From assembly GCA_951406725.2 (NCBI GenBank), contig OX597840.1:5394001-5458000 (forward strand): a DNA stretch of 64,000 nucleotides, in the 5' to 3' direction. The position numbers were made by a program, and so were the translations under genes. The notes below the pieces were generated by a model. That model ran no database searches. It was not told the DNA's origin and saw only the letters and a program-made list of their open reading frames with translations. The DNA is from Octopus vulgaris (taxonomy: Eukaryota). Shown here piece by piece: positions 38,444 through 38,668 of this stretch (position 1 is its first letter; each line of letters opens with the position of its first letter).

Positions 38444-38668
38444 ATGTGAAACAAGGTGGAAAAAAAGAGTACTCAAATACCAGTGGTAGAGTAATATGCT
38501 TTATTTAAAGCAGCAGAAAATTCAACAAAATTCTAGCAAAAGCTGTCTGATGAACGGCAATGAGAAACTCAGAGTAACAGATTTTGTTGAATTTTCTGCT
38601 GCTTTAAATAAAGCATATTACTCTACCACTGGTATTTGAGTACTCTTTTTTTCCACCTTGTTTCACAT
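38444..38668. repeat. Perfect 88-bp inverted repeat with a 49-nt loop
   Basis: Arms 38444-38531 and 38581-38668 checked as exact reverse complements. Confidence 0.95.
38543..38580 (+). ncRNA. Minimal type I hammerhead within the loop of the inverted repeat
   Basis: ctgt CTGATGA a-cg-gcaa-tg-a GAAA ctc-a-gag TA acag. Confidence 0.75.

Follow-up and report, generated by a model that had tools for sequence, protein, structure and literature searches.

The window analysed here is a 64,000-nt stretch of the Octopus vulgaris genome, and the locus under study is a hairpin at 38444-38668 formed by two head-to-head pLTR copies between TA repeats (Table 1). Element positions are numbered with +1 at window position 38530. 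The two arms are exact reverse complements (88/88) and enclose a 49-nt loop (38532-38580), of which 38 nt are a hammerhead (HHR) motif, so that the 88-bp perfect stem with a mostly hammerhead loop described in an earlier sequence-only reading was confirmed. RNA folding of the hairpin gave a z score of −25.7 against 200 shuffles. The right arm begins immediately 3' of the 4-bp proximal stem I, and its first 9 nt constitute the 3' strand of a predicted distal helix I. In that reading everything 3' of the ribozyme was inverted upstream; this is correct for the start of the right arm, but the element's final 17 nt (38669-38685) have no inverted counterpart. The ends of the hairpin are accordingly asymmetric, with +139 on the left and +155 on the right.

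Table 1. Features of the hairpin locus and of a related copy in the window
Feature	Position	Strand	Basis or remark
Left (TA)n target remnant	38435-38443		sequence
Left arm	38444-38531	-	inverted pLTR copy, element +52 to +139; trimmed "long" end abutting TA repeats
AT microhomology at head-to-head join	38530-38531		final 2 nt of left arm = element +1/+2
Sense pLTR copy, +1 to +155	38530-38685	+	likely RNA 5' end to long (tail) end
HHR motif, type I	38543-38580	+	38 of 49 loop nt; letters read from sequence
Stem I	38543-38546/38577-38580	+	sequence
Core CUGAUGA	38547-38553	+	sequence; GAAA at 38564-38567
A.A at 10.1/11.1	38554/38563	+	sequence
Stem II		+	2 bp, GCAA loop, one G-U in this copy
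Palindromic stem III	38567-38575	+	1-nt centre
Predicted cleavage site	after 38576	+	motif layout
Right arm	38581-38668	+	element +52 to +139; 88/88 complement of left arm
Tail	38614-38685	+	between short end (+84, 38613) and long end (+155); from end positions at 90 + 30 sampled loci; family length 71 nt, 72 nt in this copy
Right (TA)n target remnant	38686-38708		sequence
Older decayed solo pLTR, same family	13194-13277	+	GGAA loop, broken core, short end

The 211 window ORFs of at least 90 aa were judged by eye to be simple or dispersed repeats, with no evident host gene. A search for a microRNA precursor gave a best Rfam score of 36.1 bits against a family gathering threshold of 83, and an Rfam scan of the whole window yielded only below-threshold microRNA matches among the matches listed. 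Within the tail, a bulged stem-loop is predicted at 38619-38643, directly behind the short end, and recalls the stem-loop at the reverse transcriptase (RT) start sites of PAc. The right TA run is followed immediately by a different high-copy repeat (38704-38895; contig depth of hundreds of thousands), an arrangement that suggests a nested insertion into the same microsatellite. The non-inverted decayed relative proposed near 13195-13275 was also recovered: 13194-13280 aligned to the locus with 79.8% identity over 89 nt (E 1.6e-14), its core is broken, and no inverted partner was found in 12000-14500.

The letters of the motif are CUGU / CUGAUGA / A-CG-GCAA-UG-A / GAAA / CUC-A-GAG / UA / ACAG. 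The core CUGANGA, GAAA and UH and the stems I to III are all present, which classes it as a type-I HHR, and Rfam hammerhead models gave no match to the locus motif or to the autonomous copy described below. A descriptor scan returned 129 family HHR hits and none in reversed sequence. Among the sampled arms, the core columns were 98-100% invariant except U4 (T 43, C 32) and N7; the family thus keeps CUGANGA/GAAA, on the conservation of which the sequence-only reading had been made to depend. At position 10.1-11.1 the 129 hits carry A.A (94), A.G (18), A-U (13) or A.C (4) in place of the usual G-C pair. A reading of the A.N mismatch as the sign of a dead ribozyme in this family was rejected, since U.U occupies the same place in many Hydra HHRs (PMC8557442). 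Because U.U at 10.1-11.1 is known in natural HHRs (PMC3088659) and is common in Hydra elements, the family motif may, by analogy, be functional.

Changes between HHR subfamilies affect U4, N7, the stem II loop, 11.1, the stem III centre and a 1x1 loop in stem I, mostly loop or unpaired sites. Ordered by distance from the L031 copy, these comprise an older subfamily with U4C and A-U (1.8%), an intermediate one with U4C and A.G (1.0%), and the youngest, with canonical U4 and A.A (0.6%). Full agreement with the canonical letters is rare (1/48), as if each subfamily had retained one weakening change. Unrelated type-I hammerhead candidates with a palindromic stem III were also seen at L102:2459(-), L131:2394(+) and L136:1130(-).

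A genome search reached an autonomous copy in which the pLTR tail runs on into an ORF. On motif inspection, this parent has a single 711-aa ORF with YRDDG (RT) and a C-terminal VVY..YTG (GIY-YIG); Pfam and PDB searches with the ORF gave no match, and the RT and endonuclease (EN) assignment is based on these motifs. RWK, DKT, the CxCX5C linker and CxxC/CxH around E and N, which are defining features of the Hydra clade (PMC8557442), were all present in the ORF of locus L174. Direct pLTRs flank the parent ORF, an inverted 5'-truncated copy is also present, and the pLTR-to-pLTR unit of L174 is 3,359 bp. The 711-aa ORF product has 2,553 homologues. In a protein search that scored 63 of 37,818 candidates, 60 of the 63 scored matches lacked an internal stop, and 14 ORFs of 707-712 aa, from 16 regions taken from the 63 scored matches, start at the family methionine. 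All 17 of 17 family ORFs were 93.8-99.5% identical to the L032 protein. Exact matches to the family motifs numbered 5,274 (tail), 6,784 (HHR) and 3,831 (short end) genome-wide, with none in the reversed control for any of the three. Judged by its motifs, the source is an EN+ Penelope-like element (PLE) of the Hydra clade with intact copies elsewhere in the genome. The proposal of a young PLE-type inverted pLTR insertion is borne out by this parent with intact ORFs and by the 98% identity over 157 nt between the sense copy at 38530-38685 and the autonomous pLTR (L031/L032).

Several arrangements of larger copies were observed beside these. L031/L032 (G000:C3:139.256-139.268 Mb) and L184 contain multi-kilobase inverted or partial-tandem whole elements whose outer ends are one long and one short. 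The upstream pLTR copies in L175, L186, L187, L189 and L093 start approximately 50-65 nt before +1, possibly a minimal promoter boundary or a second join hot spot. An apparent 5' break at −521 at several loci was set aside as probably an alignment break against the reference rather than a truncation site.

The architecture of the family's insertions was examined on contig C1 in 90 loci from the first 100 tail matches, chosen regardless of their 5' side, and conversely in 30 loci given by the first short-end matches. These samples, which have many loci in common, are not independent. An adjacent inverted partner (within 60 nt) was found at 65 of the 90 tail-anchored loci. Among these partners 63 ended at the short site (+84), where the alignments extend a few letters into TA, one ended at +106, and one at the long site. 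Partners were present at 20/30 short-anchored loci, and all 20 were long; the remaining 10 had no adjacent partner within the locus. Most sampled insertions terminate in TA repeats. The median stem was 66 bp, with 18/65 stems of at least 80 bp, and 29/65 joins had a 1-12 nt overlap. A MITE or foldback DNA transposon was rejected, as the ends are asymmetric (+84/+155), the inner junctions are variable and the parent encodes an RT. A non-LTR retrozyme was likewise rejected, the hairpin at 38444-38668 having a single HHR and head-to-head arms, not head-to-tail tandem units.

The two arms of a pair are closely related to each other: divergence was 1.7% within a locus versus 4.9% between loci, and 23 of the 51 arm pairs measured were perfect. 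Arms agreed at the diagnostic sites +19 (29/29) and +76 (52/53), and all 27 pairs of the A52 subfamily were concordant at +76 compared with 17.7 expected (0/10,000 shuffles). A few pairs were discordant at +13 or +52, L009 and L011 being discordant at +13. Such sharing of variants would also arise by snap-back self-priming, in which one cDNA or antisense template is copied back on itself, as has been proposed for rotifer PLEs (PMC3846280). Both arms started at the same position in 10/65 pairs, several around a CTAG palindrome, which fits this route, and the long/long state and the 100% arm identity at 38444-38668 could also be accounted for by it. However, neither arm contained the other in 36/65 pairs, where the short arm extended further 5' than the tail arm yet had no tail, and 7 pairs barely overlapped or did not overlap. 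The tail arm started beyond +86 in 7/65 pairs, and in these it is therefore not a fold-back copy of the other arm. Snap-back is thus an unlikely origin of the inverted arms, although the least unlikely of the alternatives considered here.

The starts of 130 arms were distributed as follows: 37 at 0 to +5, 19 at +6 to +15, 15 at +16 to +25, 13 at +26 to +35, 9 at +36 to +45, 3 at +46 to +55, 5 at +56 to +65, 12 beyond +65, and 17 upstream of 0. With 56/130 within 0 to +15, the starts pile up near +1 and not at the cleavage site. In autonomous copies the upstream context is CC-ATTCTAG, and the CCATTCT at +1 is a sequence that we take to be initiator-like. From the insertion ends, the RNA 5' end is likely near +1.

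At the locus studied, +52 and +1 meet at a shared AT. Of the 73 matches to a gapped pattern (control 5), 7 had the identical junction, at 7 loci on 6 contigs. The HHR-in-loop arrangement is a minority (8/65 inverted loci). Microhomologies of 2-3 nt are available at +52 to +50, +47/+46 and +44 to +42. At the six sibling loci that carry this junction, the HHR arm is short and the stem measures approximately 33 bp, compared with 88 bp here. Among 30 junction-selected loci, 28 were long/short and one was short/trimmed-long, and only 38444-38668 had a tail on both arms; the 88-bp stem exists because this locus is a rare long/long exception. An end at +139 occurred at 10 loci; six of the nine loci other than this one pair it with a short arm, and +139 is therefore regarded as a variant long end.

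When the ends of the 73 junctions were sorted by hand, 31 fell at +50 to +54, 3 at +49, 7 at +47/+48, 21 at +40 to +46 and 1 at +37, and 10 were unclassified; the search pattern is blind to ends beyond +54. This mild excess just 3' of the cleavage site is the observation that would favour reading the left arm as a fossil of HHR cleavage in vivo, in which the 3' product (5' end +48) was copied and trimmed by 4 nt to the AT while the right arm was copied from uncleaved RNA, and a similar trimming gradient follows +1. Against this, only 3 of the 130 arm starts in the unbiased sample lie at +46 to +55, compared with 9 and 5 in the bins on either side, and the blind zone of the pattern qualifies the excess itself. 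Two RNA templates would also be required, yet the arms usually share variants, and no RNA reads that end at the HHR site were detected in the study of PAc (PMC11167929). A cleavage fossil is accordingly judged improbable, slightly more so than snap-back.

The proposal that the long stem presents the ribozyme in its loop was considered together with structure predictions. A distal extension of stem I is predicted between +5 to +12 and +53 to +60, the 3' strand of which lies inside the right arm. In a solo leader (+1 to +70), the outer three stem-I pairs, held by the distal helix, had predicted pairing of 0.79-0.80 in this copy and 0.96-0.97 in the L031 copy. In the full hairpin, predicted pairing fell to 0.0 for stem I, 0.003 for stem II and 0.015 for stem III, and the HHR fold was predicted to lie 10.8 kcal/mol above the minimum; the loss of stem I is ascribed to the left arm taking the distal helix I strand. 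In the whole +1 to +157 of this copy, stem I had a predicted value of 0.04, and therefore the tail appears to compete as well. These ViennaRNA predictions omit the HHR core, tertiary contacts and coaxial stacking, and a long helix could still stabilize a 4-bp stem I. A palindromic stem III with a 1-nt loop has been reported to give no cleavage as a single motif and weak cleavage as dimers (PMC4209133), so that by analogy the stem III of this family is predicted to need a second HHR copy.

A scaffold role for the stem, with cleavage leaving a functional nicked dsRNA, would agree with the complete core motif in this copy, with stem I abutting a long helix on which it could stack, and, mildly, with the recurrence of the junction and the ends at +50 to +54. 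The predictions run counter to it: stem-I pairing is 0.0, alternative loop hairpins are favoured by G13 and T32 of this copy, and stem III is of the dimer-requiring type. Of the 65 insertions, 28 had a whole HHR in each arm, 8 had it in the loop and 20 had no arm with a whole HHR; that the HHR is mostly buried or broken argues against selection for display. The sibling stems are short, and the join is explained by AT/TCT microhomology. Neither display of the ribozyme by the stem nor a nicked dsRNA product is therefore upheld, and the scaffold reading is considered very improbable.

Public reads bear on the inverted repeat in part. In run X1, one 35-nt contig spans a junction of this type with 100% identity, having 28 nt on one side and 7 on the other, which is below the 31-nt bridging criterion. 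The locus-specific loop letters at 38540-38548 were absent from contigs of X1, X2, X7 and X9, an absence that is uninformative. Contigs are unable to bridge the TA flanks, and raw DNA run X23, about 3% of which was read, gave one partial read. Among the public runs recorded as RNA, none was listed as containing the stretch, a result that says nothing for or against expression. Read support, which the sequence-only reading had called for, was thus obtained for the junction type but not for the letters specific to this locus. An assembly artefact, or homogenization of the arms by assembly, would suit the rarity of the long/long state (1-2 of 65) and the loop letters missing from four public runs, but it is the least probable of the alternatives given that the same junction recurs on 6 contigs and in the X1 contig, that perfect arms are common among the measured pairs, and that the asymmetric ends (+139, +155) are each of a type found elsewhere.

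Taken together, the hairpin is very probably a head-to-head pLTR insertion of a Hydra-clade PLE into a TA repeat, likely an integration by-product, with the HHR as a likely inactive passenger. This explanation draws on the target type, the two fixed ends occurring one of each, the shared variants, the microhomology joins and the starts upstream of the ribozyme. On this basis, the RT/GIY-YIG protein would nick both strands of the (TA)n target, and, within the 5' leader of a single uncleaved element RNA, two cDNAs would be primed, as a rule at +155 and +84. Both would extend toward the RNA 5' end and run off near +1, after which their 3' ends would be trimmed and joined at short microhomologies. 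At 38444-38668 the join would have used the AT between +52 and +1, leaving the HHR outside the duplex by chance. The tail on both arms would come either from a rare primary long/long event or from later copying of one arm from the other. A transcript of the hairpin, if made, would be a plain dsRNA hairpin. The form able to dimerize would be the pair of HHRs on one strand of a full-length element, separated by 3.36 kb.

Two internal RT start sites, nicking of both strands, a predicted dimer, and insertion in vitro for which the HHR is dispensable have been described (PMC11167929), as has an inverted copy with a tail at one end in PLEs (PMC8557442). Three points weigh on the other side. Variants could be shared because a single master was active at any one time, and not because both arms came from one RNA molecule; the 73 junctions show the mild excess noted above; and the RT start site showed no strand difference in vitro (PMC11167929), which does not by itself predict a strict one-of-each.

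The family was compared with known systems as they are presented in the available text of the papers cited. It resembles Hydra-clade EN+ PLEs in RWK, DKT, CxCX5C, CxxC/CxH and the (TA)n target, in the inverted 5'-truncated copy with a tail at one end only, and in an HHR of the same layout with the stem III ACUC-N-GAGU, Hydra-2_aMil having the same or near-identical stem I and III letters; an unpaired U.U at the foot of stem II is also common among Hydra HHRs (PMC8557442). It differs from them in that this site is A.N, with A.A in the youngest subfamily, in a stem II of 2 bp, in a 3.36-kb unit compared with generally less than 3 kb (a descriptive figure), and in a tail of 71 nt compared with 30-40 nt (PMC8557442). 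Since the listed octopus family Hydra-1_oBim carries a different HHR (PMC8557442), the present one is, by its sequence, another, distinct family of the known Hydra clade. Minimal PLE hammerheads share the type-I HHR in pLTRs and the palindromic short helix III; most of them likewise occur as dispersed single motifs, and dual motifs separated by 100-700 bp on opposing strands had already been recorded, whereas their conserved G10.1-C11.1 pair is absent here (PMC4209133). PAc/Poseidon elements are alike in having two internal RT start sites bounding a tail, an AT-rich target cut on both strands and an uncleaved RNA template (PMC11167929). They belong to another clade, their start sites lie inside the ORF and not, as here, in the 5' leader at least 67 nt before the ATG, and a strict pairing of one long with one short end, as counted here, is absent from the available text of that paper (PMC11167929). 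Non-LTR retrozymes are likewise non-autonomous, PLE-derived and equipped with a type-I HHR, but they form head-to-tail HHR tandem arrays in contrast to the single head-to-head pair with one HHR (bioRxiv 10.64898/2026.07.22.740005).

The proposed course of integration is similar in outline to L1 twin priming. In L1, two target-primed cDNAs are joined head-to-head at microhomology as a minority accident with variable second priming. In the present family the head-to-head product is instead the main outcome, the second site is fixed and the arms overlap. The origin of the inverted ends and one-sided tails of PLEs has been stated as open (PMC8557442). Thirty-one recently active PLE families have been reported (PMC13282606), with no pLTR analysis found in the available text of that paper. 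No published description of the family's pLTR or of the counted long/short rule was found; subscription papers, Repbase/Dfam or the repeat library of PMC13282606 may hold it.

Inverted repeats are not restricted to this family in the window. A perfect 63-bp palindrome with no spacer at 13468-13593 has a second hammerhead family on each arm, which is also present at 11826 on the minus strand and has a 4-bp stem I, U.U at the base of stem II and a longer stem III. The 32-nt core of this second family has 776 exact copies, many in head-to-head pairs. Further inverted repeats, 35-72 bp long, non-simple and TA-rich at their ends, were found at 47154-47309, 51227-51300, 55047-55202, 56286-56475 and 59662-59885, and one more with TA-rich ends, at 38990-39075, was seen by eye. 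These further repeats are likely inverted pLTR insertions of other families.

The hairpin at 38444-38668 is ordinary in this genome, one among thousands of pLTR hairpins, and its value lies at the level of the family, which is very young, has many intact ORFs and has sharply defined ends. The population-scale footprint, with its strict long/short pairing, shared variants and 5' ends upstream of the ribozyme, matches and extends the two-start-site result obtained in vitro. A broader proposal, which we advance tentatively and rate a little below an even chance, is that PLE integration would be an obligate two-site twin priming on one uncleaved RNA, each insertion using +155 and +84. It would imply some 3,800 dsRNA hairpins (an extrapolation of 65/90 to the 5,274 tail matches), likely a large source of substrates for editing and small RNAs. 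The pLTR hairpins are candidate contributors to the surplus of nearly perfect genomic dsRNA that has been described in octopus (PMC5625713).
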